Assembly: GCF_000012545.1 (NCBI RefSeq)
Contig: NC_007681.1
Span: 1,020,001-1,052,000, forward strand
Origin: Methanosphaera stadtmanae DSM 3091
GTDB lineage: Archaea; Methanobacteriota; Methanobacteria; Methanobacteriales; Methanobacteriaceae
Length of the DNA stretch: 32,000 nt
Reading direction: 5' to 3'
The position numbers and the translations under genes are program-made. The notes below the pieces were generated by a model, which saw only the letters and a list, made by a program, of their open reading frames with translations, was not told the origin of the DNA and ran no database searches. Every line of letters starts with the position of its first letter. The stretch's first letter is position 1. Below, piece after piece: positions 7,781 to 27,141 of the stretch.

Positions 7781-10700
7781 TTAGCTTTTTACTACAGTTA
7801 TGGTACTATTTACATCGTTTCTATTGTATAATTTGTGTCCATATACACATGTGAATGTATAGTCTTGTGCTCTTGCATTTTCTGGTATTGTATAATCTAT
7901 TGTTACTAGTCCATCTTTTACTTCATGGTAAATTATATATCCCTCATTGTCTCTCATGGTTTTACCATTTACCTTGAATAGGACACGTCCTTCATTTACA
8001 TTAGCATCTTTTTCTGTTATTTTCACTGTTATTTTTATTGTTTGGCCTGGTTTTGCTGTTGTAGTGTTTGTTGTCATTGCCATTGTAGCTGTTTTTTTGG
8101 TTATGTTCATTGGTATTGTGTTGTTTGTTCTTGTTTGTTCATATGTGCTAGTTCCACCATAAACTACATTTAGTACTGATTTTATTTTAAACCAGTTTGC
8201 TGGTACTGTGTAGTTTTCTATCATTGCTATTCCATTTGTTACTGTTGTGTATATTATGTTTCCATTGGTGTCTTTTATTGTTTTTCCATTTACTTTGAAT
8301 ACTAAACGTCCTTCTGTTACAGGATTTCCATCTTCATCTGTTACTGTTGCTTTTAGATTGATTTTATCTCCTATTTGTGCATTTATTGGATCTATTGTTA
8401 CAGTAGTGCTGAGTTTATGTATATCCACGTTTATTGTTGTGTTTATTGCATTGTATGTTTCTGTTTCTTCATAGATGAATGTTAGGTTTTGATTAAAGTT
8501 TCCTCTGAAGATTTTAGTAAATATTCCTTTTCCATCAATTACATTGATTATTGCAAATGTGTTATTGTATTGGTCTATTACTGTTACTGTTCCATTTAAT
8601 GGATTTCCGTCTTCATCTGTTAGTGTTATTTGTATGTTTGTTTGTGTATTTGGTGTTGTTTTTACTGAGTCTACTTTGAGTATAGTATTTATTTTATCTA
8701 CGTTTACAGTTTGAGTAATTGTGTTTTCGTCATATTTACCTTCACCATCTCTATATGTTATTTGAATTGTATTTTCTCCATCTTTTGTTGGTGTGTAGTT
8801 GTATATAGCAATTCCATCTGTTAATGTTAATGTGGTTTCTTTCAAATAATTACCATTAATTATAACAATAACTGTACCATTTACGGCTTTATCCATCATT
8901 GAAGTAACATTTATCATTATTGGATATGTTTTACCCATTTTTATTTCTGATGGTATTGTTATGTTTATTTGTGTTTGATAGAATTCTTCTCCTATTGGAA
9001 AGTTATTTGATACGCTATTGCTTTTTCCAGTTTTTTTCACTGCATTATTACCTTGTGAGTCTATACTTTCAATATAATTCTCAGTTACTTTATTACGAAT
9101 ACCATTTATTATATCAATTACGGGAATACCATTGTTTTTAGCTTTAACAATTATTACGGAAGAAGAGATACTTACCCTAGTTGAATTTATGAATTTTACT
9201 GCAGTTGTTGGATTATCACTTTCTAGTTTTATGTTAAAATCATATAGAGTGATAAATTGTGCATTTATTATTTCGATTGCTGTTATATTATTTCCTTTTC
9301 CTTGAATATTATTATCTTCTATATATGGAGAGACATTAGTTAATGTGTTTCCTATAATTATTATTTTTGCAGGAGTATTATTATTTTCGTGATATATTAT
9401 ATTATTTTTTATAGTTACTGTTGAGTATATTTCTAGGCTTGTTTGTCTATCATCTGTGTTATGTATGTTTATTCCAGTCATGTTACTGTTTGTTGCATTT
9501 TCTGTGAAGATAATTGTTCCATTGTATATTGTGTAATTATTTGGATTTTCTATTATTACAGGATGATTAAAAATCATGTTTTTGTTAATTAAATCAGAAC
9601 CAAATTCTATCATGTTAATATTATCATTTAATGTTTGATTTGTAAAGTATTGATTATAATTGTTATTTGTTATTAGAACTCCAGGTTTGTTTTGATTCAT
9701 TGTGATATCTGTGGAATTTATTACATCTATTGTTAATTGTCCTTTTAAATCTTTTGTTTCTAAATAATTTTCAGTTATTGTTGCTTTATTTGAATTTTCT
9801 ATTATTATAAGAGGTATTTCAGTCTGATTTTCTGCTATTATATTATTTTTTGTAATTGATAAGTTTGTCGTGTTTTTGAATATACTTTGTATGGTGGTAT
9901 TTGTTAAGATGATATTTCTATTAATAGTTGAACTTTCACTATTTTCTATGTATATTGGAGTATTTTGTGTAGCATTCATTGTTATATTAGTGGAGGATAT
10001 TGATACTTTTTTATTGTTTACAAATATTGCTGTAGCATTATTTTTTGCATTTACTGTAATATCTGTGTTGGATACGTTTGTATTTATTAAGGCTATTATT
10101 TTTCCATTTTCTTCTGTTTTTGTTGTATTTACTGTGATGGTTCCCTTGGATATTGTTAAGGATCCTTCTGAGTATGTTGCTGTTGATACTTTAGTGTTGT
10201 CTTCTGAATTTATTTCTGGTGCATTTAGTGTTATATTTGTATTTATTATATTTGCTGTTGAATTATTATTTACATATATTGTCTGTGCTTGTTTTTCATT
10301 GTTGGTTTGTGTTATATTTGCATTATTAATGTTTACTTTTCCTGTCATAATGTTTATTATTGTTTTTCTATCATCTGTTATATTGAGTTTTAAATTGTTT
10401 AAGTTGCTTGTTTCTGTACTGTTTATTGTTATTGTTCCATTGTATATTGTGTAGTTTCTAGGGTTTTTTAATGTAATTGCATGGTTAAATATCATGTTTT
10501 TATTGTAAATATCAGATCCTATTGTTGTTTCTACTGTTTTATTAATATTGAATATTTGATTTACAAAATAGTCATTGTAATTATCATCTGTTAGAATTAT
10601 TATTTCTGGAATGTTGTTAGATAGAGTATTGTTTTTACTGTTTGTTTGGATAATTGTACTGTCTCCACCACGGAAATTATTACCATTGAGGTAGTTATTT

Positions 10701-13678
10701 ATTATTTTATTATTATTAGAATTAGTTAAATTCATTACATAATCGCTTTGTGTGGTAATGGTTATGTTGTCTATGGTATTGTTATTTGAGTTTTCCATGA
10801 TTATTGCAATATCATTTATATTTATTGTTGTGTTGGATACGTTTTCTGCTAGTCCTAAGTATGTGTTTGTAGTATTTACTAGTTTTAAGAAGTTTCCTTT
10901 AGTGTTATATAAGGAGTCTTTTTTCATAATGATGGATGTAATATTAGTATTTTTTGAATTGACTTGTTCTATAGCAACTATATCTGAATTAGTATTATTT
11001 AATGTAGAAACATATGTTAAAGTATTGAATATTTTTGTGTTATTACTATTTTTTGTTAGTATTTCTCTTGCATAATTACCTATTATCTTGTAATGGATAT
11101 AAGAATATGTAATATCTAAACATGAAACTTTTATATTATTACTATTTTCTAGAAATATGCCTATACTTTTATTAGAGGTTATTGTGGATGTTCCATAGGA
11201 TTTGGTGAAGGAATTGTTGTTATTATGCAATGCTAAAGTTCCGTTTGAGATTATTCCATATGCTATATTATTTGAGGTTATGGCTAGATTTTGTATAATT
11301 ATTGTATTATCTTTAGAATCTTGTAATTCTATTCCTTTTGCATTTTCTGAGGTGTGTATGTATATTTGATTTTGGAGAGTGTTTTTATTTGAATTTATTA
11401 ATTGATTTCCAATTGCATTTCTGTTTGTATTAATATAAATATAATTATTATCAAGATAATTTTTATTACTATTATTTAATATTATACCTGTTGAAGTTGT
11501 ATTAATTATATCACTGGTTGTTGTCATATTGATTTTATTGTTTGTTAGGATATTATTTGATGAGTTTATTTTTATACCTATGTTATTTGTTGTAGTATTT
11601 ATGTTAATCTTGTTTGATTCTATATTATTATCATTTTTATTTATTATAATACCAGTATAGGAATTAAATATGTTTGTATTTATATTATTGTTTCTTATAA
11701 GGTTATTTGTAGTATTAACAAGTATTCCATATTGATTATTATCATTATTATTAATGTTTATTTTTTGAATAATCATTGAAGCATTGTTTATTATATTAAT
11801 TGAACCATTTACAATGTAAATTCCATTTTTACTTGAAAGAAATGCTTTTATATTAGAAAAAGTTAAATCTTTATTTGTAATATTACCTGTAATAGTAATA
11901 ATACTTCCATTTTCAACAATATCTGTTTTAATTACACCATTATTATCAAAATAAGTACTATAATTATCATCAGTTAAATTAACATAACTACCAGTTACTG
12001 GAATATTATCTTTAATAATATTATTATCATTAGATGATATTGCCATATTACCAGTTAATACTTGTGAATATATTGTATTATTAATAATAATATTATTTTT
12101 AGAATTTGTATTTAATGTGATAGAATAAATATCGTTAGTTTTTATAATATTGTTAGTGATATTATTATTATCACCTGTTATAGCAATATATTTAGTTATG
12201 GTATTATTAGTTACAGTAGTATTTCCTTTAAGATACATTCCATAACCATTAGTTGTGAAGTTTATAATATTACCTTTTATTGTAGTGTTACGATTAATAG
12301 TTGAATATATAGCAAAAGTTGTACCAGTTGTTACACTAAGTGATCCAAATAAACTTGATGGTTGCATATCATTAAATGATGAATTATATATTTCATTTTT
12401 AAGTGTAGCATTATCTTTACCAGTTACATAAATACCAGTACTTTTATTGAAAATACAATTATCTACATATAAATTACCTTCACTTTGATAAATATCAGTT
12501 TGTTGGTTATTTATAAATGTAGAATTAATAATATTAGTTACAAGTCCACTAATACCATGAATATTAAAATAGTCTGCTCTACCAGTATTTGATGCAATTC
12601 CACTACCAAATTTATAAGTACTAGCAGCATTATAAGCTTTTCCATCTTTAATTGTACAATTAATAATGTCAATAATTTTATCATTAGTTATAGTACCCCA
12701 ACGAGCAATATTACCAATAAATTGACTGTTTAATACAATTGCAGTACCATTATTGTAAATACCCGCTCCAAAATTACCAGTAGATGAAGCTTTTCTATTT
12801 TTTTGGAAAATGCTATTATTCACAATGAGTGTAGAACCATTATTATTTCTAATACCTGCTCCTACTCCTGCAAGATTTTCAAGGAAATACACATTATCTA
12901 CTTCAAGATTACCATAATTATCAACAGTAGCAGTAGGATATAGACTTATACTATCTCCACCATTAGTACCATTACTTAACATATGTTGAATATTAAGATT
13001 TTTAATAATAATTTTACCAGTACCATTTGTAATATTCATACCCCAATTACCACCATAAATATTGTAATAATTAAAGTATGAATCATCACCCCATACACTA
13101 GCACCCGCAACTGTATAATTTACTTCTCCATCAATAATGGTTTTATTAATTCCATCTCCAATGAAGTTTATTTTATAATCTCCATTTACTGTAAGGTTAG
13201 TGTTTCCAACACCAGTATATGTACCTGTGGATATGTGTATATTGTAGGTGTTATCTTTAGTGGTTTGTGTTATTGCTTGATTGATTGTTTTATATGGTTT
13301 GTCAATTGATCCATCGTTTGTATCTGATCCTTTGTCATTGGATACGTAGTAGTTTATTTCTGATTCTTTTTTAAGTGTTTTATTGGTTGTTTTTATTTCT
13401 TCTTTATTTTTTTGTTTTTGTGTTGTAATTTCTTTTGTTTTTATTTCTTTTTTTGGAGTAATCTCTGTTTTAGTATCTTTAATAGTAGACTTTAATTCTT
13501 TATTATCATTGGTTATTATTTTTTCTTTATTATCTATTGTTTGTGATGTTGTCGTGTCTATTGTTTGTTTTTCTATTGAAGTGGTAGTTGTAGTGTTTGT
13601 GTCTGCTGCTGTTATTGTTGAAAGTCCTAGTATTAATACTATTAACAGTATTGAAGACAGTAGTATTTTATTCTTCAT
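7781..13678 (-). CDS. ALP-A: giant secreted Asn/Thr-rich adhesin-like protein (1965 aa). Signal peptide, T/K/E-rich stalk, parallel beta-helix with Pmp-like repeats, C-terminal Ig-like domain repeats
   Basis: Uninterrupted 5.9-kb ORF. The N-terminus MKNKILLSSILLIVLILGLSTITAADT is signal-peptide-like. GSDTNDGSIDKPYKTINQAI is a beta-helix N-cap motif. GVGAGIRNNNGS...NSIFQKN and FGAGIYNNGTA...NSQFIGN resemble the GGAI/FxxN polymorphic-membrane-protein repeat. The C-terminus carries repeated GxVxFKVNGKT...DG.A...YT Ig-like units. GGAGG and GTGAT lie upstream of the ATG. Confidence 0.88.
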   Translation of the reverse strand: MKNKILLSSILLIVLILGLSTITAADTNTTTTTSIEKQTIDTTTSQTIDNKEKIITNDNKELKSTIKDTKTEITPKKEIKTKEITTQKQKNKEEIKTTNKTLKKESEINYYVSNDKGSDTNDGSIDKPYKTINQAITQTTKDNTYNIHISTGTYTGVGNTNLTVNGDYKINFIGDGINKTIIDGEVNYTVAGASVWGDDSYFNYYNIYGGNWGMNITNGTGKIIIKNLNIQHMLSNGTNGGDSISLYPTATVDNYGNLEVDNVYFLENLAGVGAGIRNNNGSTLIVNNSIFQKNRKASSTGNFGAGIYNNGTAIVLNSQFIGNIARWGTITNDKIIDIINCTIKDGKAYNAASTYKFGSGIASNTGRADYFNIHGISGLVTNIINSTFINNQQTDIYQSEGNLYVDNCIFNKSTGIYVTGKDNATLKNEIYNSSFNDMQPSSLFGSLSVTTGTTFAIYSTINRNTTIKGNIINFTTNGYGMYLKGNTTVTNNTITKYIAITGDNNNITNNIIKTNDIYSITLNTNSKNNIIINNTIYSQVLTGNMAISSNDNNIIKDNIPVTGSYVNLTDDNYSTYFDNNGVIKTDIVENGSIITITGNITNKDLTFSNIKAFLSSKNGIYIVNGSINIINNASMIIQKININNNDNNQYGILVNTTNNLIRNNNINTNIFNSYTGIIINKNDNNIESNKININTTTNNIGIKINSSNNILTNNKINMTTTSDIINTTSTGIILNNSNKNYLDNNYIYINTNRNAIGNQLINSNKNTLQNQIYIHTSENAKGIELQDSKDNTIIIQNLAITSNNIAYGIISNGTLALHNNNNSFTKSYGTSTITSNKSIGIFLENSNNIKVSCLDITYSYIHYKIIGNYAREILTKNSNNTKIFNTLTYVSTLNNTNSDIVAIEQVNSKNTNITSIIMKKDSLYNTKGNFLKLVNTTNTYLGLAENVSNTTININDIAIIMENSNNNTIDNITITTQSDYVMNLTNSNNNKIINNYLNGNNFRGGDSTIIQTNSKNNTLSNNIPEIIILTDDNYNDYFVNQIFNINKTVETTIGSDIYNKNMIFNHAITLKNPRNYTIYNGTITINSTETSNLNNLKLNITDDRKTIINIMTGKVNINNANITQTNNEKQAQTIYVNNNSTANIINTNITLNAPEINSEDNTKVSTATYSEGSLTISKGTITVNTTKTEENGKIIALINTNVSNTDITVNAKNNATAIFVNNKKVSISSTNITMNATQNTPIYIENSESSTINRNIILTNTTIQSIFKNTTNLSITKNNIIAENQTEIPLIIIENSNKATITENYLETKDLKGQLTIDVINSTDITMNQNKPGVLITNNNYNQYFTNQTLNDNINMIEFGSDLINKNMIFNHPVIIENPNNYTIYNGTIIFTENATNSNMTGINIHNTDDRQTSLEIYSTVTIKNNIIYHENNNTPAKIIIIGNTLTNVSPYIEDNNIQGKGNNITAIEIINAQFITLYDFNIKLESDNPTTAVKFINSTRVSISSSVIIVKAKNNGIPVIDIINGIRNKVTENYIESIDSQGNNAVKKTGKSNSVSNNFPIGEEFYQTQINITIPSEIKMGKTYPIMINVTSMMDKAVNGTVIVIINGNYLKETTLTLTDGIAIYNYTPTKDGENTIQITYRDGEGKYDENTITQTVNVDKINTILKVDSVKTTPNTQTNIQITLTDEDGNPLNGTVTVIDQYNNTFAIINVIDGKGIFTKIFRGNFNQNLTFIYEETETYNAINTTINVDIHKLSTTVTIDPINAQIGDKINLKATVTDEDGNPVTEGRLVFKVNGKTIKDTNGNIIYTTVTNGIAMIENYTVPANWFKIKSVLNVVYGGTSTYEQTRTNNTIPMNITKKTATMAMTTNTTTAKPGQTIKITVKITEKDANVNEGRVLFKVNGKTMRDNEGYIIYHEVKDGLVTIDYTIPENARAQDYTFTCVYGHKLYNRNDVNSTITVVKS

Positions 13679-13780
13679 ATTGAATCACGTTCCTCCCATG
13701 TTTTTTATAAGAAAAATAATCTAATTTTTTCTTATTTCCATTAAAAATTTCTAAATTTCTAATTAAAACAAAATTGATTT

Positions 13781-13802
13781 TAACTAAGTTTTATCTTAGT
13801 TA
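13781..13802 (-). promoter_or_regulatory. Conserved inverted repeat TAACTAAG-N6-CTTAGTTA in the ALP-A upstream leader
   Basis: AACTAAG at 13782-13788 and CTTAGTT at 13795-13801, an 8-bp stem when flanking bases are included. The same element occurs upstream of ALP-B and ALP-C. Confidence 0.45.
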
Positions 13803-13896
13803 TTATTAATTTAAGAAGGATTATATTTAAATTTAATCTAATTAAAGTAATAGTAAATAGTTTTAGAAAATAAATATAATTTATTAAATAAAGAAA

Positions 13897-13908
13897 GGGG
13901 GGGGGGGG
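13897..13908 (-). repeat. Homopolymeric tract G12 (C12 on the ALP coding strand), 218 nt upstream of the ALP-A ATG
   Basis: Counted directly: g at 13897-13908, flanked by a-runs. Confidence 0.95.
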
Positions 13909-13926
13909 AAAAATATATTGTTTTAT

Positions 13927-13934
13927 TTTATAAA
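13927..13934 (-). promoter_or_regulatory. TATA-like box TTTATAAA, 18 nt from the poly-C tract (candidate ALP-A promoter)
   Basis: Coding strand reads GTGAAATATTTTTATAAAATAAAACAATATATTTTT-C12, an A-rich BRE-like stretch followed by TTTATAAA. With the usual archaeal TATA position (about -30 to -23), the start site falls inside the tract. The same 18-nt spacing occurs at all three loci. Confidence 0.35.
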
Positions 13935-14051
13935 AATATTTCACGTGTTTATTTATAAAATAAAATAATATTTATCATTTCTTTTATTAATAACTCTTAT
14001 ATTTTTTGAATTATTAAAATAATTAAATCTTTTTATTGGATAATTTAATTT

Positions 14052-17000: not shown

Positions 17001-20000
17001 AAATGTCATATTTTTATTGTAAATGTCTGATCCAAGTATTAATTCTACTGTTTTATTTATTATCCATGTTTGATTTATAAAGTATTGGTTATAATTATCA
17101 TTTGTTAAAATTATTACATTAGGTGTGTTGTTTTGTATGATATTATTTTGACTATTTGTTTGTATAACTGCACTATCTCCACCATAGAAGTTATTACCAT
17201 TGAGGTAATTGTTTATTATAGTATTATTGTTTGAGTTTGTTAAGTTTATAGTATAATCTGTATTGGTGTTTATGGTTATATTATCTATAATATTATTATC
17301 TGAATTTTCTAGTATAATTGCAATATTAACTATATTTATGTTAGCACTTGAAACGTTATTTCTTGAACCAAGATATGTATTTGTAGTATTTACTAGTTTT
17401 AAAAAGGTACTGTTGTAATTTACATAGCTTCCTGACGAAATATACTTCTGCATCCCAATAGCAGTTATATTAGTATTTTCTGAGTTAATTTGTTCTATTC
17501 CTATTAAATCAGGCATTTTATCACTTATTTCTTTTGTAATATGAATGCTTAAATAAAATATCTCTGTATTATTTGTATTTTTTGTTAATATTGTTCTTAC
17601 AGTATTACCTCTTGTAACATAATTCATTGAAGTTGATCTTGAAGATATATTAGTATTTGTTGTATTTTCTAATAATGTACCTATAATAGTATCTGCTGTT
17701 ATGTCTATGTTATTTGAAATAGTATTATTTTTATTTAATGCTTTTTCTCCAGTTATTATAGTTCCATATCCTGTATTATTACTTATTATGTTAATATAAT
17801 TATTTATTTGATTGTTTTGTGAGTTTATTAATTCTACTCCTTTTGCATTTTCTGATGCATATACATATATATTATCATTAATTATATTATTGTCTGATTT
17901 TATTAATTTTTCACCAATAGCATTAATATTACTCATCATAAGTATTCGATTACCAGATAGTATGTTATTATTTGTATTGGATTTTAAGTTTAATCCAATT
18001 ATTGTAGTATCTGTTATTTTAGAAATAGTTGTTGTATTGATTTTGTTGGATAATAAATAGTTATAAGATGATTCAATTGAAATACCTGTATTATTTGTTG
18101 TACTTGTAATATTAATAACATTTTTTTCTAAGTTATTATTATCTTTTTTTATTATAATAGCTTCAATAGGTTTATTAGAATCTATCATTATGTTATTGTA
18201 TGTTATAAGGTTATTATCACTATCAATAAGTAAACCTACTTTATTATTATTTATGATGTTTGTATTGTTAATAATCAAAGAAGCATTATTAATTATACTA
18301 ATTGAACCATTTTGTATGTAAATGTTTTTCTTAGATGAAAGAAATGCTTTTATATTAGAAAAAGTTAAATCTTTATTTGTAATATTACCTGTAATAGTAA
18401 TAATACTTCCATTTTCAACAACATCTGTTCTAATTATGCCCTTATCATCAAAATAAGTATTATAATTATTATTAGTTAAATTAATATAAATACCAGTTTC
18501 TGGAATATTATCCTTAATAATATTGTTATTATTATTGGATGATATAGCTTTATCACCAGTAAATACCTGAGAGTATATTGTGTTATTAATTATAGTATTA
18601 TTTTTAGAATTTCTATTTAATGTGATAGAATAAATATCGTTAGTTTTTATAATATTGTTAGTGATATTATTATTATCACCTGTTATAGCAATATATTTAG
18701 TTATGGTATTATTAGTTACAGTAGTATTTCCTTTAAGATACATTCCATAACCATTAGTTGTGAAGTTTATAATATTACCTTTTATTGTAGTGTTACGATT
18801 AACAGTTGAATATATAGCAAAAGTTGTACCAGTTGTTACACTAAGTGATCCAAATAAACTTGATGGTTGCATATCATTAAATGATGAATTATATATTTCA
18901 TTTTTAAGTGTAGCATTATCTTTACCAGTTACATAAATACCAGTACTTTTATTGAAAATACAATTATCTACATATAAATTACCTTCACTTTGATAAATAT
19001 CAGTTTGTTGGTTATTTATAAATGTAGAATTAATAACATTAGTTACAAGTCCACTAATACCATAGGGATTAAAATAGTCAGATCCACCAGTATTTGATGC
19101 AATACCACTACCAAATTTAAAAGTACTAGCAGCATTATAAGCTTTTCCATCTTTAATTGTACAATTAATAATATCAATAATTTTATCATTGGTTATAGTA
19201 CCCCAACGAGCAATATTACCAATAAATTGACTGTTTAATACAATTGCAGTACCATTATTATAAATACCTGCTCCATAATTACCAGTAGAAGATCCTTTTC
19301 TGTTTCCTTCAAATATTGAATTATTTACAAGTAGTGTTGAACCATTATTACTTCTGATACCTGCTCCTACTCCTGCGAGATTTTCAAAGAAATACACATT
19401 ATCTACTTCAAGATTACCATAATTATCAACAGTAGCAGTAGGATATAAACTTATACTACTTCCACCCCCCGTACCATTACTTAACATATGTTGAATATTC
19501 ATATTTTTAATAGTAATAATACCAGTACCTTTAGTAATATTCATACCCCAATTACCTTTAGTAATTATATATGAATTAAAATAAGAATCATCACCCCATA
19601 CACTAGCACCACCAATAGTATAATTTACTTCTCCATCAATGATTGTCTTATTAATTCCATCTCCTATGAAGTTTATTTTATAATCCCCATTTACTGTAAG
19701 GTTGGTGTTTCCAACACCAGTATATGTACCTGTGGATATGTGTATGTTGTATATGTTATCTTTAGTGGTTTGTGTTATTGCTTGATTGATTGTTTTATAT
19801 GGTTTGTCAATTGATCCATCGTTTGTATCTGATCCTTTGTCATTGGATACGTAGTAGTTTATTTCTGATTCTTTTTTAAGTGTTTTTATTTCTTCTTTAT
19901 TTTTTTGGTTTTGTGTTGTAATTTCTTTTGTTTTTATTTCTTTTTTTGGAGTAATCTCTGTTTTAGTATCTTTTATATTGGATTTTACTTCTTTATTATC

Positions 20001-20165
20001 ATTGACTATTACTTTTTCTTTATTATCTATTGTTTGTGATGTTGTCGTGTCTATTGTTTGTTTTTCTATTGAAGTGGTAGTTGTTGTGTCTGTTGCTGTT
20101 ATTGTTGAAAGTCCAAGTATTAATACTATTAACAGTATTGAAGATAGTAGTATTTTATTCTTCAT
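14052..20165 (-). CDS. ALP-B: giant secreted Asn/Thr-rich adhesin-like protein (2037 aa), paralog of ALP-A
   Basis: Uninterrupted 6.1-kb ORF. The N-terminal ~640 aa and C-terminal ~330 aa are almost identical to ALP-A, and the central part alternates conserved and divergent blocks. It has the same signal peptide, beta-helix cap, Pmp-like repeats and Ig-like C-terminal repeats. Confidence 0.88.
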   Translation of the reverse strand: MKNKILLSSILLIVLILGLSTITATDTTTTTSIEKQTIDTTTSQTIDNKEKVIVNDNKEVKSNIKDTKTEITPKKEIKTKEITTQNQKNKEEIKTLKKESEINYYVSNDKGSDTNDGSIDKPYKTINQAITQTTKDNIYNIHISTGTYTGVGNTNLTVNGDYKINFIGDGINKTIIDGEVNYTIGGASVWGDDSYFNSYIITKGNWGMNITKGTGIITIKNMNIQHMLSNGTGGGSSISLYPTATVDNYGNLEVDNVYFFENLAGVGAGIRSNNGSTLLVNNSIFEGNRKGSSTGNYGAGIYNNGTAIVLNSQFIGNIARWGTITNDKIIDIINCTIKDGKAYNAASTFKFGSGIASNTGGSDYFNPYGISGLVTNVINSTFINNQQTDIYQSEGNLYVDNCIFNKSTGIYVTGKDNATLKNEIYNSSFNDMQPSSLFGSLSVTTGTTFAIYSTVNRNTTIKGNIINFTTNGYGMYLKGNTTVTNNTITKYIAITGDNNNITNNIIKTNDIYSITLNRNSKNNTIINNTIYSQVFTGDKAISSNNNNNIIKDNIPETGIYINLTNNNYNTYFDDKGIIRTDVVENGSIITITGNITNKDLTFSNIKAFLSSKKNIYIQNGSISIINNASLIINNTNIINNNKVGLLIDSDNNLITYNNIMIDSNKPIEAIIIKKDNNNLEKNVINITSTTNNTGISIESSYNYLLSNKINTTTISKITDTTIIGLNLKSNTNNNILSGNRILMMSNINAIGEKLIKSDNNIINDNIYVYASENAKGVELINSQNNQINNYINIISNNTGYGTIITGEKALNKNNTISNNIDITADTIIGTLLENTTNTNISSRSTSMNYVTRGNTVRTILTKNTNNTEIFYLSIHITKEISDKMPDLIGIEQINSENTNITAIGMQKYISSGSYVNYNSTFLKLVNTTNTYLGSRNNVSSANINIVNIAIILENSDNNIIDNITINTNTDYTINLTNSNNNTIINNYLNGNNFYGGDSAVIQTNSQNNIIQNNTPNVIILTNDNYNQYFINQTWIINKTVELILGSDIYNKNMTFNNAITLKNPRKYTIYNGTITINSTETSNLNILKLNITDDRKTVINVMAGTLNINNANITQINNENQAQTIYVNTNSKVNIMNINITLNAPEINSEDNTKVSTAAYSEGSLTIYRGNITVNTTKTVQNGKIIAMINIGSIYLSNITMNSENNAIAFIKNIFNDTAVSNIGSNNFNLYSKNQTIGIISENHTSLRDNNITLNSPYTTGIIQTKGYLTLENNKIITNGTNNTPLYLKNYISSFIETRINENIFISNNNTQNIIENRSVINITNNIIKVENQSKTHLIIIENSNNIRIIGNYLETSDLKGNNAVKVINSTNITMSFNRPGVLITNENYNQYFTNQTLNSDITIIEFGSDLINKSMIFNHPVIIENPNNYTVYNGTIIFTKNATNSNMTGINIHNTDDRQTSLEIYSNSINIIKNTLYQENTNNPAKTIIVNNTGSVGFSRNNITTIGKNVTIITLNNLKIITSVSNIINGKGSNITAIEVTNSKTAAIIRITTNNITLESENPITAVRFINSKGVRLTNNIVIVKTKNYDTPIIEIINPTINVITNNYIESEDVCGNDAVKKIGTGTASINNNKPTNGNYRTQMNITTLPSELKVGKTYPITINVTSMLDKPVNGTVILNIGDKETNLTLTDGIATYNYTPTKDGETTIKITYNDPTGKYENNTITQSITVNKINAILKVDSVKGIPNTRINIPITLTDEFENPINGTVTVIDQYNNTFAIINVIDGKGTFTKIFRGNFNQNLTFIYDGTETYNTINTTINVDIHKLSTTVIIDPINAQIGDKINLKATVTDEDGNPVTEGRLVFKVNGKTIKDANGNIIYATIKDGVAMIENYTVPANWFKIKSVLNVVYGGTSTYEQTRTNNTIPMNITKKTATMTMTTNTTTAKPGERIKITVKITEKDANVNEGRVLFKVNGKTMRDNEGYIIYHEVKDGLVTITYTIPENARAQDYTFTCVYGNKLYNRNDVNSTITVVKN

Positions 20166-20276
20166 ATTGAATCACGTTCCTCCTATATTTTTTATAAGAA
20201 AAATAATCTAATTTTTCCTTATTTTCATTAAAAATTTCTAATTAAAATAAAATTGATTTTAACTAAAATTTGATTT

Positions 20277-20298
20277 TAACTAAGTTTTATCTTAGTTA
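20277..20298 (-). promoter_or_regulatory. Conserved inverted repeat TAACTAAG-N6-CTTAGTTA in the ALP-B upstream leader
   Basis: AACTAAG at 20278-20284 and CTTAGTT at 20291-20297. Confidence 0.45.
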
Positions 20299-20388
20299 TT
20301 ATTAATTTAAGAAGGATTATATTTAAATTTAATCTAATTAAAGTAATATTAAATAGTTTTAGAAAATAGATATAATTTATTAAATAAA

Positions 20389-20397
20389 GGGGGGGGG
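20389..20397 (-). repeat. Homopolymeric tract G9 (C9 on the coding strand), 223 nt upstream of the ALP-B ATG
   Basis: Counted directly: g at 20389-20397. Confidence 0.95.
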
Positions 20398-20415
20398 AAA
20401 AATATATTGTTTTAT

Positions 20416-20423
20416 TTTATAAA
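20416..20423 (-). promoter_or_regulatory. TATA-like box TTTATAAA, 18 nt from the poly-C tract (candidate ALP-B promoter)
   Basis: Identical to the ALP-A arrangement. Confidence 0.35.
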
Positions 20424-20540
20424 AATATTTCACGTGTTTATTTATAAAATAAAATAATATTTATCATTTCTTTTATTAATAACTCTTATATTTTTTGAAT
20501 TATTAAAATAATTAAATCTTTTTATTGGATAATTTAATCT

Positions 20541-23500
20541 TTAGTTTTTTACAACAACTACTGTACTGTTTACATCGTTTCTATTGTATAATTTGTTTCC
20601 ATATACACATGTGAATGTGTAGTCTTGTGCTCTTGCATTTTCTGGTATTGTGTATGTTATTGTTACTAGTCCATCTTTTACTTCATGGTAAATTATATAT
20701 CCCTCATTGTCTCTCATGGTTTTACCATTTACCTTGAATAGGACACGTCCTTCATTTACATTAGTATCTTTTTCTGTTATTTTCACTGTTATTTTTATTG
20801 TTTGTCCTGGTTTTGCTGTTGTAGTGTTTGTTGTCATTGTCATTGTAGCTGTTTTTTTGGTTATATTCATTGGTATTGTATTGTTTGTTCTTGTTTGTTC
20901 ATATGTGCTAGTTCCACCATAAACTACATTTAGTACTGATTTTATTTTAAACCAGTTTGCTGGTACTGTGTAGTTTTCTATTGTTGCTATTCCATCTTTT
21001 ACTGTTGCATAGATAATATTTCCATTGGTGTCTTTTATTGTTTTTCCATTTATTTTAAATACTACTCGGCCTGTGTTTATTGGATTTCCATATATGTCGT
21101 ATACATGTGCTTTTAAGTTGATAGTATCTCCTACTTGTGCATTTATTGTTTCTAATACTATTTTTGTGTTGATTATTGCTCTTGTATTGTTTTCTAGATA
21201 TGTGTCATAGTTTGTATTTATTGTTCTTGTTCCTGTTTTTGTACTTGTTGTTAGTTTATTGTTTGTTATTGTCGTGTTTTTTATTGAGTTTTCGGTGTTT
21301 ATTGTTAAATCATGTTGTCCTATATCTTTTATTATTATTGTATTGTTGTCTATTTGTGTGTTATGTGAGTTTTGTTGTATTTGTATTCCTGTGTTTGCTG
21401 GTCTTATTTCTTCTACTATATCATTTATTTTTATGTTACTGTTTCCATATAGTATCATTTCATTGTTTATTATTGTATTATCTTCACTGTGTGCTAGTCC
21501 TATTCCCATTGTATAGTTTCCATTTCCAAGTATTGTATTGTTGTTTATTGTTGTATTTGATGTTTGATATATTTCCATTCCATATATTACTGATGAGTTA
21601 AGTTGTATGTTATTGTTTGTGATTGTTATGTTGTTTGTTCTGCCTCCACCCATACTTGTTGTTATTATTCCATATGCTAATGGTTCATTATCATCTGTAA
21701 ATGTTGTTGTATTATAGCATGTTCCTGTTATATTGTTTCCTGTTATTGTACAATTGGTTGCTTTATTTCCCATTTGTATTCCATTAACATATCTGTGTCC
21801 TGTTACATGAATATTGTTATCTTTAATTATTGTATTATTTACACGGTCAAGTGTATTTATTCCATAATTAAATCTTCCTCCTGTTACTGTTACATTGTTG
21901 TTTATTATGAGTATGTTGTTACTTTTTCCTGGTGCTGTTATTCCTTCTATTGTACTGTAGAGGTTATCATCAGGATTTGTACTATTATATACTTTAACAT
22001 TATTTTTTGATATTATATTATTTTCTCCACCAACAGATAATATTCCCTGTGTATTTGCTATAGATGTTCCACTTCCATATGTAATAGTTAATGCTGGACC
22101 ATATACTTTTACTGTATTATTTGATATAAGTATGTTACTTCCACCTGTATTTGCTATTGCTGCTGTTTTACCATTTGTGTTATATGTGTAGATTGTATTG
22201 TTTATTATTTTATTATTGTTTCCTGCTGATTTTATGGTGTATTCAGTTGTATCTGTATTGTTAATTTTCATGTTTTTAATTGTTATATTTACATCATCAA
22301 GTTCAAAGCTTGTATTTGTAAATGTAGCATTTTCACCATTTATTATTATGCCTGGTGTTGTTATGCTTATTTGTCCTTTATTTATGAAGTCTCCTTTAAA
22401 TATGATATTAGTATCTTCATCAACACCTATTAATTCATTGTTAAATATGTAACTCTCATAGTTTTCTGGTGTAATTGTTAAGTATTGGTGTTGTGATAAT
22501 TTAAGTACTAGTATGTTAGTAGTTTTAGATGTTATTGTTGGCTTTGCATAAAGAATAATATTATCAGTTGTGTTTCTTGTAATTTCAGTACTAAGAGTAT
22601 CTTCTATTTTATACAAATTTTTTCCTATATAAAATGCATATTTTGTTTTATTAAGTATATCTTTATCATAACTTTCTGGATTTTTTAATATGATACTACC
22701 ATTTATTTTAGCAGTTTCATTAACAAATACTTTACCAGGATTATTTAATGTAAGATTACTAAATGCTATTGTACAATTATCATAAGAATTATTTTCAATA
22801 ATGGTTCTTGTACTATCATTTGTCACATTTATAAATAATGTATCATTAGCACATAAAACATTTTTAAATGTGTTATTTACAAAGGTAGTATTTAAATTAC
22901 TTCCACCATTTATAAAAACAGATCCTGCAAAACCACTAGCATAACTGTTTGTGAAAGTATTATTTTCTATTAAACAGTTACTATAGATTGTCATGGAAAG
23001 ATCTGCTCCAGAACCAGAATATCTACCATCAAAATAATATTGAGGCATATACTGTGCTTTAACACTACTTATATTATTATCTTTAAAAATACAATTAGTT
23101 AATGTTAAATTTAGAGCATCGTTTCCACCAATTGCAGCTCCACCACTCATAGCCCAAGAACTATTAAATTGAATATAATTATTTTCGAAAATAGTATTAT
23201 TTATAAGAGAATACCCTCCAGCCAAATAAAGAGCTGCTCCATAACAATTACCAATTTCATATTGGTTTGTAACTACACAACTTTTGTTTCTAAAAGTACA
23301 ATTATCTATAGTAGTATGATTGCTTGAAGATATAGATACACCACTACCACCATTAGTGAAAGTAGAATTATATATATTTATAATATTTAATGCATTAACT
23401 GTAATATCTTTATTATTATTATCAAAAAGACTATTAGTAACATTTAAATTAGATGTTCCGTATCTATTAAATATATTTTTAATTATATTCACGGTAAATC

Positions 23501-25100
23501 TACTGTTATTTTTAAAAATACAATTATCTATATTAAAATTCAAGGTAATATCAACTTTAGGGTCTATATGTGAATAAATACATGATATGTTATTATTACT
23601 CATAGTAGTATTAGTAATAGTTAAATTACCATTAGTATATATTACATATACATAACCTATTGATTTAGCACTATTATTAGTTAAAGTAGAATTAATAATA
23701 ATTAAATTACCGCCCTCGTTATGTAATAATCCAGCAGGACCACCCCAATTTCTATCATCATAAATATCAGACATGGTACAATTAATAATAGTTAAATTAC
23801 CATAATTAGATAAGGTAGTATTAAGTATAGAGTTAATAATAGTTAAATTACCATAATTATACCTACTGCCTGATAAAGTAATATTATTTAATGTATAATT
23901 ACCATTATAAGTATCTATATACTTGATAATATCGGTTTTATTAGTAATTATAATACCTTTTCCACTTATTAATGCATTACTACCTAATATGGTATCATCA
24001 CTAATAGTTAAATTACCATTACTATACATAGTTGTATTTAATGTACAATTATTCAAAGTTAAATTACCATTATTTGTTCTTGAAGTTTTTATTTCAAAAT
24101 TATTTAATGTATAATTACCTTTATATGTTTGATAATAATTTATTATGTTTGTTTTATTGGTAATTATAATACCTTTTCCACTTATTAATGCATTACTACC
24201 TAATATGGTATCATCACTAATAGTTAAATTACCATTACTATACATAGTTGTATTTAATGTACAATTATTCAAAGTTAAATTACCTCTATTTTGCATCATC
24301 TTAGCATTTAATGTACAATTATTTAGAGTTAAATTACCATTATTTGTTCTTGAAGTTTTTATTTCAAAATTATTTAATGTATAATTGCCATTATATGTTC
24401 GATAATAATTTATTATGTTTGTTTTATTGGTAATTACAGTTCCTTCTTCAATTAGTGTGTTTTCTTTAATTATACAATTATCATCAATAATTATGTAATT
24501 AGCACGAATACTAGAATCAACAGTACAATTATGTAAAGTTAAATTCTTTGCATATATAAATTTTGTTAATATACTGTCATTAAAAGTAAGATTATAATTA
24601 TACATATTAAATTCAAAATCAATAGTTTGATTATTTCCATTAATTGTTACATCTTTTAGATAAGAACCACAAGAAATCCTCTCCTCGGAACTATAATTTC
24701 CGGGTTCTAAATTAATAATCCATTCATAAGAACTGCTTTTTTGAGATATTTCACTAAAAACCTTTTCTATTTCAGTAAAATTATTCACAGTTTTTTCTAC
24801 TGGTGTTGTTTTTAATGTTTTTGTTTTTAATGTTTTATTAGTTGTTACAACTTCTTTAGTTATGTCTTGTTTAGGAGTAATTTCTTTTTTAGTATCTTTT
24901 ATACTGGACTTTACTTCTTTAGTTATGTCTTGTTTTTCTTTATAATCAGTGTTAGTAGGAGTGTTAGTTGTTGGTGTCTGTTTTTCTATGATATTAGTAG
25001 TTGTTGGTGTTGTTGTATTTGTGTCTGTTGCAGATATAGCTGAAAGTCCTAGTAATAATACTATTAATATTATTGAAGATATTAATATCTTATTCTTCAT
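20541..25100 (-). CDS. ALP-C: giant secreted Asn/Thr-rich adhesin-like protein (1519 aa from ATG 25100). Distinct N-terminal beta-helix region; C-terminal 206 aa shared with ALP-A and ALP-B
   Basis: Uninterrupted 4.6-kb ORF. MKNKILISSIILIVLLLGLSAISATDT is signal-peptide-like and homologous to the A/B start. The track start at 25109 is the GTG within the GTGAT SD-like element. Pmp-like motifs include YGAALYLAGG...NNTIFENN, SGGAAIGG...TNCIFKDN and GFAGSVFINGG...NNTFKN. The C-terminal Ig-like module is near-identical to A and B. Confidence 0.88.
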   Translation of the reverse strand: MKNKILISSIILIVLLLGLSAISATDTNTTTPTTTNIIEKQTPTTNTPTNTDYKEKQDITKEVKSSIKDTKKEITPKQDITKEVVTTNKTLKTKTLKTTPVEKTVNNFTEIEKVFSEISQKSSSYEWIINLEPGNYSSEERISCGSYLKDVTINGNNQTIDFEFNMYNYNLTFNDSILTKFIYAKNLTLHNCTVDSSIRANYIIIDDNCIIKENTLIEEGTVITNKTNIINYYRTYNGNYTLNNFEIKTSRTNNGNLTLNNCTLNAKMMQNRGNLTLNNCTLNTTMYSNGNLTISDDTILGSNALISGKGIIITNKTNIINYYQTYKGNYTLNNFEIKTSRTNNGNLTLNNCTLNTTMYSNGNLTISDDTILGSNALISGKGIIITNKTDIIKYIDTYNGNYTLNNITLSGSRYNYGNLTIINSILNTTLSNYGNLTIINCTMSDIYDDRNWGGPAGLLHNEGGNLIIINSTLTNNSAKSIGYVYVIYTNGNLTITNTTMSNNNISCIYSHIDPKVDITLNFNIDNCIFKNNSRFTVNIIKNIFNRYGTSNLNVTNSLFDNNNKDITVNALNIINIYNSTFTNGGSGVSISSSNHTTIDNCTFRNKSCVVTNQYEIGNCYGAALYLAGGYSLINNTIFENNYIQFNSSWAMSGGAAIGGNDALNLTLTNCIFKDNNISSVKAQYMPQYYFDGRYSGSGADLSMTIYSNCLIENNTFTNSYASGFAGSVFINGGSNLNTTFVNNTFKNVLCANDTLFINVTNDSTRTIIENNSYDNCTIAFSNLTLNNPGKVFVNETAKINGSIILKNPESYDKDILNKTKYAFYIGKNLYKIEDTLSTEITRNTTDNIILYAKPTITSKTTNILVLKLSQHQYLTITPENYESYIFNNELIGVDEDTNIIFKGDFINKGQISITTPGIIINGENATFTNTSFELDDVNITIKNMKINNTDTTEYTIKSAGNNNKIINNTIYTYNTNGKTAAIANTGGSNILISNNTVKVYGPALTITYGSGTSIANTQGILSVGGENNIISKNNVKVYNSTNPDDNLYSTIEGITAPGKSNNILIINNNVTVTGGRFNYGINTLDRVNNTIIKDNNIHVTGHRYVNGIQMGNKATNCTITGNNITGTCYNTTTFTDDNEPLAYGIITTSMGGGRTNNITITNNNIQLNSSVIYGMEIYQTSNTTINNNTILGNGNYTMGIGLAHSEDNTIINNEMILYGNSNIKINDIVEEIRPANTGIQIQQNSHNTQIDNNTIIIKDIGQHDLTINTENSIKNTTITNNKLTTSTKTGTRTINTNYDTYLENNTRAIINTKIVLETINAQVGDTINLKAHVYDIYGNPINTGRVVFKINGKTIKDTNGNIIYATVKDGIATIENYTVPANWFKIKSVLNVVYGGTSTYEQTRTNNTIPMNITKKTATMTMTTNTTTAKPGQTIKITVKITEKDTNVNEGRVLFKVNGKTMRDNEGYIIYHEVKDGLVTITYTIPENARAQDYTFTCVYGNKLYNRNDVNSTVVVVKN
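23944..24429 (-). repeat. In-frame 216-bp (72-aa) tandem repeat inside ALP-C, with a nested 54-bp duplication in one copy
   Basis: 23944-24159 and 24160-24429 align, with the first 126 nt identical. The upper copy carries an extra 54 nt encoding NAKMMQNRGNLTLNNCTL. A degenerate third copy flanks each side. It is also visible as the duplicated antisense ORFs 23923-24114 and 24145-24384. Confidence 0.9.
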
Positions 25101-25141
25101 TTTAATCACTTTTCCTCCATAATTTAAATAAATTTTAAAAT

Positions 25142-25161
25142 AACTAAGATTTATCTTAGTT
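25142..25161 (-). promoter_or_regulatory. Conserved inverted repeat AACTAAG-N6-CTTAGTT in the ALP-C upstream leader
   Basis: AACTAAG at 25142-25148 and CTTAGTT at 25155-25161, 42-61 nt upstream of the ATG. The surrounding sequence has diverged from the A/B copies. Confidence 0.5.
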
Positions 25162-25254
25162 GTTACTTAATTTAAAAATAATTATAATTATATTTAACTA
25201 GATTTAACTAACTAAAATCAATTTCTAAACATACAAATTATAATTCTATTAAAA

Positions 25255-25263
25255 GGGGGGGGG
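25255..25263 (-). repeat. Homopolymeric tract G9 (C9 on the coding strand), 154 nt upstream of the ALP-C ATG
   Basis: Counted directly: g at 25255-25263. Confidence 0.95.
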
Positions 25264-25281
25264 AAAATTCCATTGTTTTTA

Positions 25282-25289
25282 TCTATAAA
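25282..25289 (-). promoter_or_regulatory. TATA-like box TTTATAGA, 18 nt from the poly-C tract (candidate ALP-C promoter)
   Basis: Coding strand reads TATAATTTTTATAGATAAAAACAATGGAATTTT-C9. An ungapped alignment with the A/B distal region gives about 32/46 identical positions and keeps both the box and the 18-nt spacing. Confidence 0.35.
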
Positions 25290-25620
25290 AATTATACTGG
25301 AGTTTATTTTTTAAATAAAACCTTAATTATCTTTACTTTTAAATATATGATTATATAATTATAATTTAATTTATTATGAAAATACATGATGATTTATTTA
25401 ATCCATATTTTTTCTACTGTTTGTTTATTGACATATATATTATATACTTAAAAAAAGAGTGTTCTTATAAGAACTGCAATATTTATTTTAAAGTGGTTTT
25501 CAACAAGATTTTCTTGTTATGTTTATAATTATCTAAAATATGTTGAATATTTTGTATAATATAAATCATGAAAATATACAAATTAATAGAGTAAAATAAG
25601 TCTCATACTCATTAATAAAT

Positions 25621-25650: not shown

Positions 25651-27141
25651 TTAATTACTTTTTTGATCTTCTGTTATACGTTTCATGTATGTATTTACAC
25701 TAGTTGCTATTGCTGCAACTTTTTTACTTGGTAGGAATGTGGCTTTAAGTTCTGCAATTCTATCTTCATCTTCCTTAACAACCCTTTCAATGTCAGCTCT
25801 TAAATCAAGTTTGTTTTCTTCAATAAATCCAGTGTGTAAATTTGCATTTTTAAAGTTTTCATTAAGCATTAAAGCCTTATGGAATGGTATTGTTGTTGGA
25901 ACTCCCACAACTATATATTCATTCAATGCTCTTTTCATACGTGCAATAGCTTCATCCCTATTATTTCCATGTACTATGAGTTTTGCAATCATTGAATCAT
26001 ATATTGATGGAATAGTATAACCATTATACACACCACTATCCATTCTTACTCCAATTCCACCAGGAGAACGGTAACCTACAATACGTCCAGGATTAGGATT
26101 AAAGTCATGTAATGGATCTTCTGCATTTATACGACATTCAATAGCATGACCATTTACTTTAATATCATCTTGAGAATAATCTAATTTTTCACCAGATGCT
26201 ACTTTAATCTGTTGTTTAACTAGATCTACACCAGTAATAGCTTCTGTAATTGGATGTTCTACTTGTATTCTTGTATTCATTTCTAGGAAATAATATTCAC
26301 CATTAGAATACATGAATTCAACAGTACCTGCACTGTTATAATCAACACTTTTTGCTGCTTTAATAGCAGATTCTCCCATCCTTTGTCTTAATTCTTCAGT
26401 CATAATAGGTGATGGTGCTTCTTCTATTAATTTTTGATGTCTTCTTTGTATGGAACATTCCCTATCACATACATGTATAGTATTTCCATGATTATCTGCT
26501 AATACTTGGAATTCTATATGTCTTGGTTTTTCAATATATTTTTCTATATATACTGTTCCATCACCAAATGTTGCCTGTGCTAGATTTTGGGTGGATTCTA
26601 TTGCACGAGCTAGTTCATCTTCCTCATAAACTACTCTCATACCAATACCTCCACCTCCAGCTGATGATTTAATTATTACAGGAAAACCTATTTCTTTTGC
26701 TCTTTTTTTTGCTTCTTCAATATCAGTAATTCCTTCTTTATCTCCAGGTACTGTTGGAACTCCTATTTTTTCCATTAACTGTTTTGAAGTAATTTTATCT
26801 CCCATTGCTTGAATTGCATTTTCTCTTGGACCAATTAGTGTGATGTTGTTTTCATCACATTTATTTCCTAGTACTGGGTTTTCTGATAAGAATCCATAAC
26901 CTGGATGTATTGCATCAGCTCCTGTATCTAATGCAATGTCAATAATTTTATCAATGTCTAGGTATGATTGTGATAGTATGGATGAATTTAGTGGTACTGC
27001 TTCATCAGCATATTTTGTAAACAAACCAGTTTTATCAGCATCAGAATAGATTGCAACTGTATTCACATCTAATTCCCTACATGCTCTCATTACACGTATT
27101 GCTATTTCACCACGGTTTGCTATTAATACTTTGTCGAACAT
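25651..27141 (-). CDS. pycA: Pyruvate carboxylase subunit A (biotin carboxylase, ATP-grasp)
   Basis: 496-aa ORF. MFDKVLIANRGEIAIRVMRACRE, the glycine loop SSAGGGGIGMRVV and EMNTRIQVEHPITE are biotin-carboxylase signatures. In methanogens this stand-alone protein is the PYC A subunit. An AccC-type assignment cannot be excluded from sequence alone. Confidence 0.9.
   Translation of the reverse strand: MFDKVLIANRGEIAIRVMRACRELDVNTVAIYSDADKTGLFTKYADEAVPLNSSILSQSYLDIDKIIDIALDTGADAIHPGYGFLSENPVLGNKCDENNITLIGPRENAIQAMGDKITSKQLMEKIGVPTVPGDKEGITDIEEAKKRAKEIGFPVIIKSSAGGGGIGMRVVYEEDELARAIESTQNLAQATFGDGTVYIEKYIEKPRHIEFQVLADNHGNTIHVCDRECSIQRRHQKLIEEAPSPIMTEELRQRMGESAIKAAKSVDYNSAGTVEFMYSNGEYYFLEMNTRIQVEHPITEAITGVDLVKQQIKVASGEKLDYSQDDIKVNGHAIECRINAEDPLHDFNPNPGRIVGYRSPGGIGVRMDSGVYNGYTIPSIYDSMIAKLIVHGNNRDEAIARMKRALNEYIVVGVPTTIPFHKALMLNENFKNANLHTGFIEENKLDLRADIERVVKEDEDRIAELKATFLPSKKVAAIATSVNTYMKRITEDQKSN

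Follow-up and report, generated by a model that had tools for sequence, protein, structure and literature searches.

Does a tandem array of giant surface-protein genes in a gut methanogen, each gene fitted with a poly-C tract at its presumed promoter, work as a contingency locus of the kind known from bacteria? The array lies in a 32,000-nt stretch of Methanosphaera stadtmanae DNA (contig NC_007681.1; hereafter the window) and encodes predicted members of the Asn/Thr-rich large protein (ALP) family. The original prediction, made from the sequence of this DNA, held it to be an archaeal equivalent of such loci. The route to phase variation through simple repeats is known in detail from host-adapted bacteria, and ALPs, which take up a large share of the small genomes of gut methanogens and of which 37 are reported from DSM 3091, are the main candidates for attachment of gut methanogens to bacterial partners, mucus and host cells. 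Our answer is graded. A hypervariable ALP array is well supported by the strain comparisons reported here, and recombination between paralogs together with in-frame repeat change very probably operates at the locus. That slippage of the poly-C tract also tunes the expression of individual ALP genes is put forward tentatively, and the explanation as a whole, a strain-hypervariable tandem array with recombination, repeat change and poly-C expression switching, falls slightly short of an even chance in our estimation.

Three intact open reading frames (ORFs) lie head-to-tail on the minus strand between pycA and the rpl3 ribosomal operon, forming the array A-B-C. Gene A (7781-13678, 1965 aa) encodes an Asn/Thr/Ile-rich protein with a signal peptide and C-terminal immunoglobulin (Ig)-like (Big_3_5) domains. 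Gene B (14052-20165, 2037 aa) is a colinear mosaic paralog of A with 72 % amino acid identity, and gene C (20541-25109) encodes 1522 aa from a GTG or 1519 aa from a conserved ATG at 25100. The array is flanked upstream by a pycA-type biotin carboxylase gene (25651-27141) and downstream by an RNA methyltransferase gene followed by the rpl3-rpl4-rpl23-rpl2 operon. All three proteins are rich in Asn (16-18 %), Thr (13-14 %) and Ile (13-15 %) and begin with a typical signal peptide (MKNKILLSSILLIVLILGLS...). Pfam identified Beta_helix in the gene C product (27.2 bits) and Big_3_5 in the gene A product but no domain above threshold in the gene B product, and none of the three proteins had a match in NCBIfam. 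A beta-helix was thus assigned by Pfam in gene C only; for gene B the assignment is based on an AlphaFold model of residues 130-1000, which was all-beta (mean predicted local distance difference test score 72.7; 18-sequence alignment), and on a Foldseek comparison with the PDB. The best matches of that model were all right-handed parallel beta-helix proteins, including PL6 alginate lyases, a fucoidan lyase and the adhesins Fap2 and EtpA. The gene C product is 88 % identical to its DSM 3091 ortholog, which is annotated 'member of asn/thr-rich large protein family'. Large, predicted to be secreted, Asn/Thr-rich and homologous to annotated members, the array proteins can be assigned to the Methanosphaera ALP family, and their prediction as secreted or surface-type, adhesin-like beta-helix and Ig-like proteins is supported. 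They resemble the ALPs described from Methanobrevibacter smithii and Methanosphaera, which are likewise large and Asn/Thr-rich and carry a signal peptide with beta-helix and Ig-like domains (PMC11532034). The original prediction of three giant same-strand paralogs encoding beta-helix surface proteins therefore stands, and its family assignment agrees with both the DSM 3091 annotation and the Asn/Thr content.

The same locus was retrieved from about a dozen human-gut metagenome assemblies by exact-protein look-ups with pycA and ribosomal protein L3, and differed between strains in gene number. About 15 other gut strains were compared with the window in all. One gene is present in L015/L025 (C only, from pycA to the methyltransferase gene), two in L012/L022 (C and B) and three in L014/L023 and the window. 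Gene A is absent from both of the shorter arrangements, and the L012/L022 ortholog of gene B is ~97 % identical (97.5 %) to that of the window. The one-gene array is contained in a 203-kb scaffold and the two-gene array in a 681-kb contig, each with unique flanks on both sides, and the breakpoints fall in the conserved ends of the genes, namely the 5' cassette and signal-peptide region and the last ~620 nt. Sequence divergence is similarly localized. The pycA protein was 100 % identical in 847 collection blocks, yet orthologs of gene C were just 83-94 % identical, with the differences concentrated in mosaic blocks and in indels of 17-107 aa within a 72-aa repeat zone. The same indels of the repeat zone are seen again in isolate genomes from NCBI, DSM 3091 among them. 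Comparison of the locus across strains had been set beforehand as a test of the prediction, and since variation was found at the tracts, the repeats and in gene number, an invariant locus can be set aside.

The coding regions themselves are mosaics, as had been predicted. Between A and B, identity in 150-nt windows ranges from 23 % to 100 %, with exact runs of up to 233 nt and blocks of 97-100 % identity alternating with blocks of 55-65 %. Gene C has in common with A and B only its first ~300 nt (73 %) and its last ~620 nt, a 3' block with 91 % nucleotide identity among the three genes (7781-8400, 14052-14671 and 20541-21160, minus strand). This block and the 5' cassette and signal-peptide region are likely to serve as homology arms for unequal crossing-over and gene conversion. 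Mosaic exchange between paralogs was seen both in A/B and among the alleles of gene C orthologs. Tandem repeats inside the ORFs have periods of 15, 18, 21, 24, 27, 30, 33 and 216 nt, all multiples of three and hence in-frame as predicted, with one noisy row at period 16. The 216-nt (72-aa) repeat of gene C (23883-24291, minus strand, 1.9 copies) coincides with the zone of strain indels.

Each of the three genes is preceded by its own copy of an upstream cassette with an identical order of elements. On the coding strand this order is TTTTTATA-N4-AAAACAAT-N3-4-T(4-5)C(9-12)T(3-4), ~100 nt of A/T-rich DNA, AACTAAG-N6-CTTAGTT, a spacer, (G/A/T)GGAGGAA, GTGAT and the ATG. The conserved module of the original prediction (TATA-like box, 18 nt, poly-C, inverted repeat, GGAGG/GTGAT and ATG) was accordingly recovered with all of its elements in place, and the predicted tract lengths of 12, 9 and 9 were read again in the window sequence. 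The cassettes occupy 13679-14051 (A), 20166-20540 (B) and 25110-25365 (C, ~256 nt) on the minus strand, with the TATA-like TTTTTATA at 13929-13936, 20418-20425 and 25284-25291, respectively. The pyrimidine tracts are T5-C12-T3 in A (13894-13913; C run 13897-13908), T5-C9-T3 in B (20386-20402; C run 20389-20397) and T4-C9-T4 in C (25251-25267; C run 25255-25263). In all three cassettes the C run begins exactly 18 nt after TTTATA(A/G)A and the whole T/C/T tract starts 14-15 nt after the TATA-like box, and the end of the tract is 215 nt (A), 220 nt (B) or 150 nt (C) from the ATG. These tracts are the only C/G runs of at least 7 nt in the window, against 0.15 expected from shuffles. Further TATA-like sequences occur in these regions of 75-80 % A+T, including one ~25 nt before each ATG, so that the start site is not callable from sequence. 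The cassettes of A and B are near-identical over ~385 nt, a stretch that takes in the 3' end of the preceding gene, and differ by small tandem duplications of the kind predicted, 17 nt in the B leader (2.2 copies, 20248-20283, minus strand) and the 8-nt TTAGAAAT in the A leader. The gene C cassette has a shorter leader; where it can be aligned with the gene B cassette, identity is ~80 %.

The inverted repeat is AACTAAG-ATAAAA-CTTAGTT in the leaders of A (13782-13801) and B (20278-20297) and AACTAAG-ATAAAT-CTTAGTT in that of C (25142-25161), all on the minus strand; AACTAAG-N6-CTTAGTT thus occurs three times in the window, against 0.22 expected. Most strains carry AGCTAAG-TTAAAT-CTTAGTT instead. 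Because pairing survives this A-to-G change through a G.U pair whilst the loop varies, the data, though thin, mildly favour an RNA hairpin over a DNA palindrome. Given the variant carried by most strains, the exact repeat AACTAAGATAAANCTTAGTT was too strict a pattern for scanning contigs, and its 11 matches were all chance occurrences in unrelated bacteria. No known RNA family was found in the window with Rfam, and the leaders folded with no extra stability over shuffles beyond the small hairpin (z = -0.85 and -1.6), so a riboswitch-like leader element was not supported. An upstream ORF of six codons is present ~50 nt before the main ATG in the leaders of A (13728-13748; ATG GAA ATA AGA AAA AAT TAG) and B (20212-20232; ATG AAA ATA AGG AAA AAT TAG), on the minus strand, and is absent from that of C; in such A/T-rich DNA it may well be a chance occurrence.

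Gene C together with 256 nt of upstream sequence was also found behind an inosine monophosphate (IMP) cyclohydrolase gene (L024 and L149), with homology beginning at that distance from the ATG, indicating that the cassette moves with the gene. In total, gene C and its cassette were observed in three contexts: between pycA and the methyltransferase gene, between IMP cyclohydrolase and the methyltransferase gene, and between IMP cyclohydrolase and a 1324-aa ALP gene and F420 ligase (L024:3448-8511, L149:3191-8566). In L013 (11492-19440), the pycA-linked cassette precedes a different ALP gene of 2464 aa, with argininosuccinate lyase as the next gene. Large chromosomal rearrangements may thus have ALP genes at their borders; alternatively, the contexts may be chimeric assemblies joined via shared gene ends. 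L149 also contains a 1.4-kb gene-free spacer (8567-10000) between the two ALP genes of a second M. stadtmanae ALP locus. The spacer, which lacks a poly-C cassette, may be what is left of a degraded gene or of a mobile element.

Tract lengths were read directly, since the bordering T runs vary. Among 21 cassette copies the C run was C5, C8, C9, C10, C11 or C12. The 11 strains with a pycA-linked C-type cassette carried C9, C10, C10, C5, C9, C10, C11, C10, C10, C10 and C9; C-type cassettes in another context carried C9, C8 and C8, and A/B-type cassettes C12, C9, C11, C11, C11, C11 and C9. The C tract is the most changeable site of the locus: the 11 pycA-linked strains displayed 7 tract states, against 8-27 substitutions in 6.3 kb of flanking DNA that is 99.6-99.9 % identical. 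The C5 state belongs to L014, where the inverted repeat has also been lost through a deletion of ~100 nt in the leader (11855-12060) and the ORF is split (325 and 906 aa); this variant may be a decaying copy or a hybrid-assembly artefact.

Comparable tracts were found upstream of ALP genes in other Methanosphaera lineages, always on the sense strand: C13 ~425 nt upstream of the ATG in Methanosphaera sp. BMS, C10 at ~240 nt on a plasmid of Methanosphaera sp. ISO3-F5, and C9 at 379 nt in a gut lineage of 33 % G+C. In each of them the tract directly follows an A/T-rich TATA-like stretch, and the comparisons made among the upstream regions of the three lineages detected no nucleotide homology. Six contigs of the 33 % G+C lineage encode an identical 1709-aa protein, and one of them has C10 in place of C9, the sole difference over 9.1 kb. 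In all the non-redundant Methanosphaera loci retrieved, which represent four lineages, 6 of 12 ALP genes had a C run of at least 8 within 500 nt upstream, whereas none of the 104 genes beside them did (Fisher test, p = 3e-7; 3e-5 with M. stadtmanae counted once); these loci were chosen via ALP homologs, and the figures are a contrast with neighbours and not a genome-wide census. A scan of metagenome contigs with the pattern AAAACAATNNNNTTTN{0,3}CCCCCC gave, among the matches listed, almost entirely chance occurrences, with L034 and L128 being real. Long C runs in the genus are not exclusive to ALP upstream regions, as the ISO3-F5 plasmid also carries an intergenic C12 just after a transposase fragment (L151:18685-18696) that does not lie upstream of an ALP gene. 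Each of the two ISO3-F5 tracts comes after a transposase gene, but there is no homology between the regions, and the idea that poly-C marks an insertion-sequence end was rejected.

The explanation we favour comprises three steps. As the strain comparison shows, homologous recombination between paralogs alters gene number (1-3) and creates mosaic alleles, and in-frame tandem repeats in the N-terminal part of the proteins expand and contract. In the third, proposed step, the T(3-5)C(8-12)T(3-4) tract in the private promoter and leader cassette of each gene would occupy the DNA at which melting and initiation are expected. Archaeal TATA boxes are centred near -26/-27, the start being counted from them, and melting extends from roughly -12 to +2. 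Should TTTTTATA/TTTATA(A/G)A serve as the TATA box, a C run beginning 18 nt further on would cover this melting and start region. A G:C block in that position would hinder open-complex formation and give no purine start, and a change in tract length would shift which bases fill the region, from which weak, length-sensitive initiation is predicted, a volume control more than a bacterial spacer switch. Slippage would then alter the strength or position of the transcription start, or the pairing of the C-rich 5' end of the leader with the ribosome-binding region GGGAGGAA. The outcome would be an archaeal analogue of the bacterial simple sequence repeat (SSR) contingency locus, in which the expression of single ALP genes rises or falls, heritably yet reversibly, in separate lineages. 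In the boldest form of this proposal, an archaeal TATA/TFB promoter would be under the control of tracts acting as true phase or volume switches, a clonal population of a human gut methanogen would thereby shift its ALP repertoire and the device would be common to several Methanosphaera lineages; this we regard as doubtful.

Several observations weigh against switching by the tract. The whole T/C/T tract is exactly 17 nt long in 13 of the 21 copies (T4C9T4, T5C8T4, T3C10T4, T4C10T3, T3C11T3 and T5C9T3), about half of the differences in C count are length-neutral T<->C substitutions at its borders, and the true length variants are of 12, 15, 18, 19 (three copies) and 20 nt (two copies). Nearby intergenic A/T runs of 7-9 nt likewise differ by +/-1 between some strains, so that tract variation alone is not special. 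With the archaeal start measured from TATA, a tract downstream of it alters no spacing between two elements as in bacteria. No C run was found upstream of two other ALP genes in M. stadtmanae-type gut contigs (1324 aa, L149; 2472 aa, L155), which makes the cassette a feature of a subfamily and not of the family. The B and C cassettes are still ~80 % identical, such that retention of the tract within the species could reflect recent ancestry or gene conversion; an argument for selection from the divergence between B- and C-type cassettes was weakened accordingly. Finally, errors in homopolymer length can occur in metagenome and hybrid assemblies, and possibly in long-read ones. A modal length of 17 nt despite varied T/C composition is compatible with constrained geometry, and poly-C could be a fixed cis element whose length polymorphism is tolerated slippage noise, a reading we consider unlikely. 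Such an element might act as a G:C block over -12 to +2 that leaves the promoter weak or dependent on an activator or TFE, through pairing of the C-rich leader with GGGAGGAA, or as the target of a G-rich small RNA, for which RepG and tlpB provide a precedent of a leader homopolymer as RNA target (PMC8295292). It would accord with the constant polarity of the tract, which reads C on the sense strand in each of the four lineages. If transcribed, its U/C run could form a duplex of -8.4 to -11.9 kcal/mol with the ribosome-binding region GGGAGGAA(AA), interrupted by one C.A mismatch, and this pairing is present in centroid folds. A dedicated anti-Shine-Dalgarno sequence would, however, be expected as CCUCC and not as a homopolymer, the only C-rich and the only G-rich segments of an AU-rich leader will pair by default, which makes the predicted pairing unspecific, and the folds of the whole leader were, as noted above, no more stable than shuffles. 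A fixed element is in any case compatible with length-dependent tuning, as RepG-tlpB control is itself length-dependent.

The same data bear on whether the tract does anything at all. As a non-functional passenger it would have arisen once in an ancestral ALP upstream region and been copied with the cassette through duplication and gene conversion, its length varying as that of any homopolymer that slips. The near-identity of the A and B cassettes and the ~80 % identity of B and C mark them as young copies, the strains are only 0.1-0.4 % diverged, the A/T runs vary as well and several ALP genes have no tract. Against this stand the C9-13 runs upstream of ALP genes in three other lineages whose upstream regions lack detectable homology to each other, the presence of the tract at 6 of 12 ALP genes and none of their 104 neighbours, and its conserved TATA-adjacent position and sense-strand polarity. 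Moreover, at 26-34 % G+C an unselected C9-13 should be eroded by AT-biased mutation and slippage, and we consider a passenger improbable. That the differences in tract, copy number and reading frame are mainly assembly artefacts across repeats and homopolymers is very improbable, even though some observations point that way. ALP ORFs are split in two OPERA hybrid contigs, and the IMP-cyclohydrolase-C-methyltransferase (L024) and pycA-ALP2464-lyase (L013) arrangements could be chimeric joins via shared ends. In the window, birA (biotin-protein ligase, plus strand) displays two 1-nt deletions 7 nt apart at ~27700-27760 relative to all other strains (AAAACAACATCTCCTAG to AAAACACATCTCTAG), which cut the ORF to 191 aa (called from 28032) compared with a 322-aa product elsewhere. 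These are either a real frameshift beside pycA or indel errors typical of long-read assemblies; the window may thus hold indel errors, and its exact tract lengths of 12, 9 and 9 are to be read with caution. Nevertheless, discrete tract states recur across independent Illumina assemblies from different studies and include substitutions (T5C8T4, T4C9T4, T3C10T4) that are atypical of homopolymer miscalls, the one- and two-gene arrays sit in long contigs with unique flanks, and the repeat-zone indels recur in isolate genomes.

Set beside known systems, the locus has the anatomy of a contingency locus, with a control-region homopolymer, strain polymorphism and surface-protein genes. Homopolymers of at least ~8 nt are present in the 5' region (C9, C9 and C12, 150-220 nt upstream of the ATG, in a putative promoter), their length is polymorphic among close strains (C5 and C8-C12 against flanks 99.6-99.9 % identical), and the genes encode surface determinants as judged by signal peptide, beta-helix and Ig-like architecture and structural matches to Fap2 and EtpA. 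Likewise, bacterial SSR contingency loci such as Neisseria opc/porA (poly-C or poly-G) and those of Haemophilus and Campylobacter (poly-G) have a long G/C homopolymer upstream of surface-protein genes in a host-associated organism, and comprise several paralogs, each with its own tract, whose lengths differ between copies and near-identical strains. In contrast to these, Methanosphaera, being an archaeon, has a TATA/TFB promoter in which -35/-10 spacing plays no part, its tract lies downstream of the TATA-like box, and many of the C-count changes are border substitutions and not indels. The G-repeat in the leader of Helicobacter pylori tlpB, targeted by RepG, is similar as a variable homopolymer 5' of a surface or sensory protein gene with possible graded control at the RNA level (PMC8295292), but the sole complementary G-rich segment seen here is the gene's own ribosome-binding site. 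Paralogs whose ends are conserved and whose middles vary, mosaic alleles and in-frame variation in repeat number also characterize pilE/pilS, Borrelia vlsE and Mycoplasma vlp/vsa. Unlike pilE/pilS and vlsE, however, the array has no silent cassettes or single expression site, A, B and C being full-length with their own TATA/poly-C/Shine-Dalgarno cassettes. Compared with invertible-promoter switches (Mycoplasma vsa, Bacteroides invertons), the sole inverted repeat conserved here has a stem of 7 bp and a loop of 6 nt, and a Pfam scan of the eight flanking genes revealed no recombinase. Cassette-type and invertible-promoter systems were ruled out on these grounds. The proposal of an archaeal contingency-locus equivalent thus holds for anatomy, strain variation and surface genes, but the array is not organized as pilE/pilS or vlp/vsa and the bacterial spacing logic cannot be transferred directly.

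The statement that no switching mechanism had been described for this family also holds for the ALP literature we found, which concerns protein architecture and contains nothing on promoters, upstream cassettes, homopolymers, tandem-array copy number or phase variation. Our literature searches found no paper on M. stadtmanae transcription start sites and no description of a poly-C phase switch in archaea. One survey reported that intergenic mononucleotide runs of at least 8 are strongly over-represented in M. stadtmanae, making no link to ALPs (PMC4060949), a 2025 review of phase variation names archaea solely as a future direction (PMC11868660), and one preprint states, in the absence of relevant detail, that contingency loci have been described in archaea. 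If the tracts are true switches, no SSR contingency system would have been described in Archaea before this one, with a promoter mechanism unlike the bacterial spacer model, and bet-hedging by simple-repeat slippage would extend to Archaea and to a eukaryote-like promoter. It would explain differences between strains in ALP expression and immunogenicity, and tract length would provide a simple metagenome marker. Even without a switch, the locus shows ALP genes to be recombination hot spots, where copy number and sequence change much more rapidly than elsewhere in the M. stadtmanae genome.

Two further features were observed beside ALP loci of the other lineages. In the 33 % G+C lineage, a gene of the phage-integrase family (tyrosine recombinase) lies convergent to and right after the ALP gene with the C9/C10 tract (L156:9273-10133; L157-L162). 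In Methanosphaera sp. BMS, an intergenic element of ~70 nt is present in two copies, separated by 5 kb and close to an IS605 OrfB gene (L148:4225-4295 and 9150-9220); it reads tgctata[c/g]a[t/c]a[c/t]atataacgaagtaaaa...caatcaCCCCCC(C)aactaaaaacaccaacat and contains a short C run of its own.

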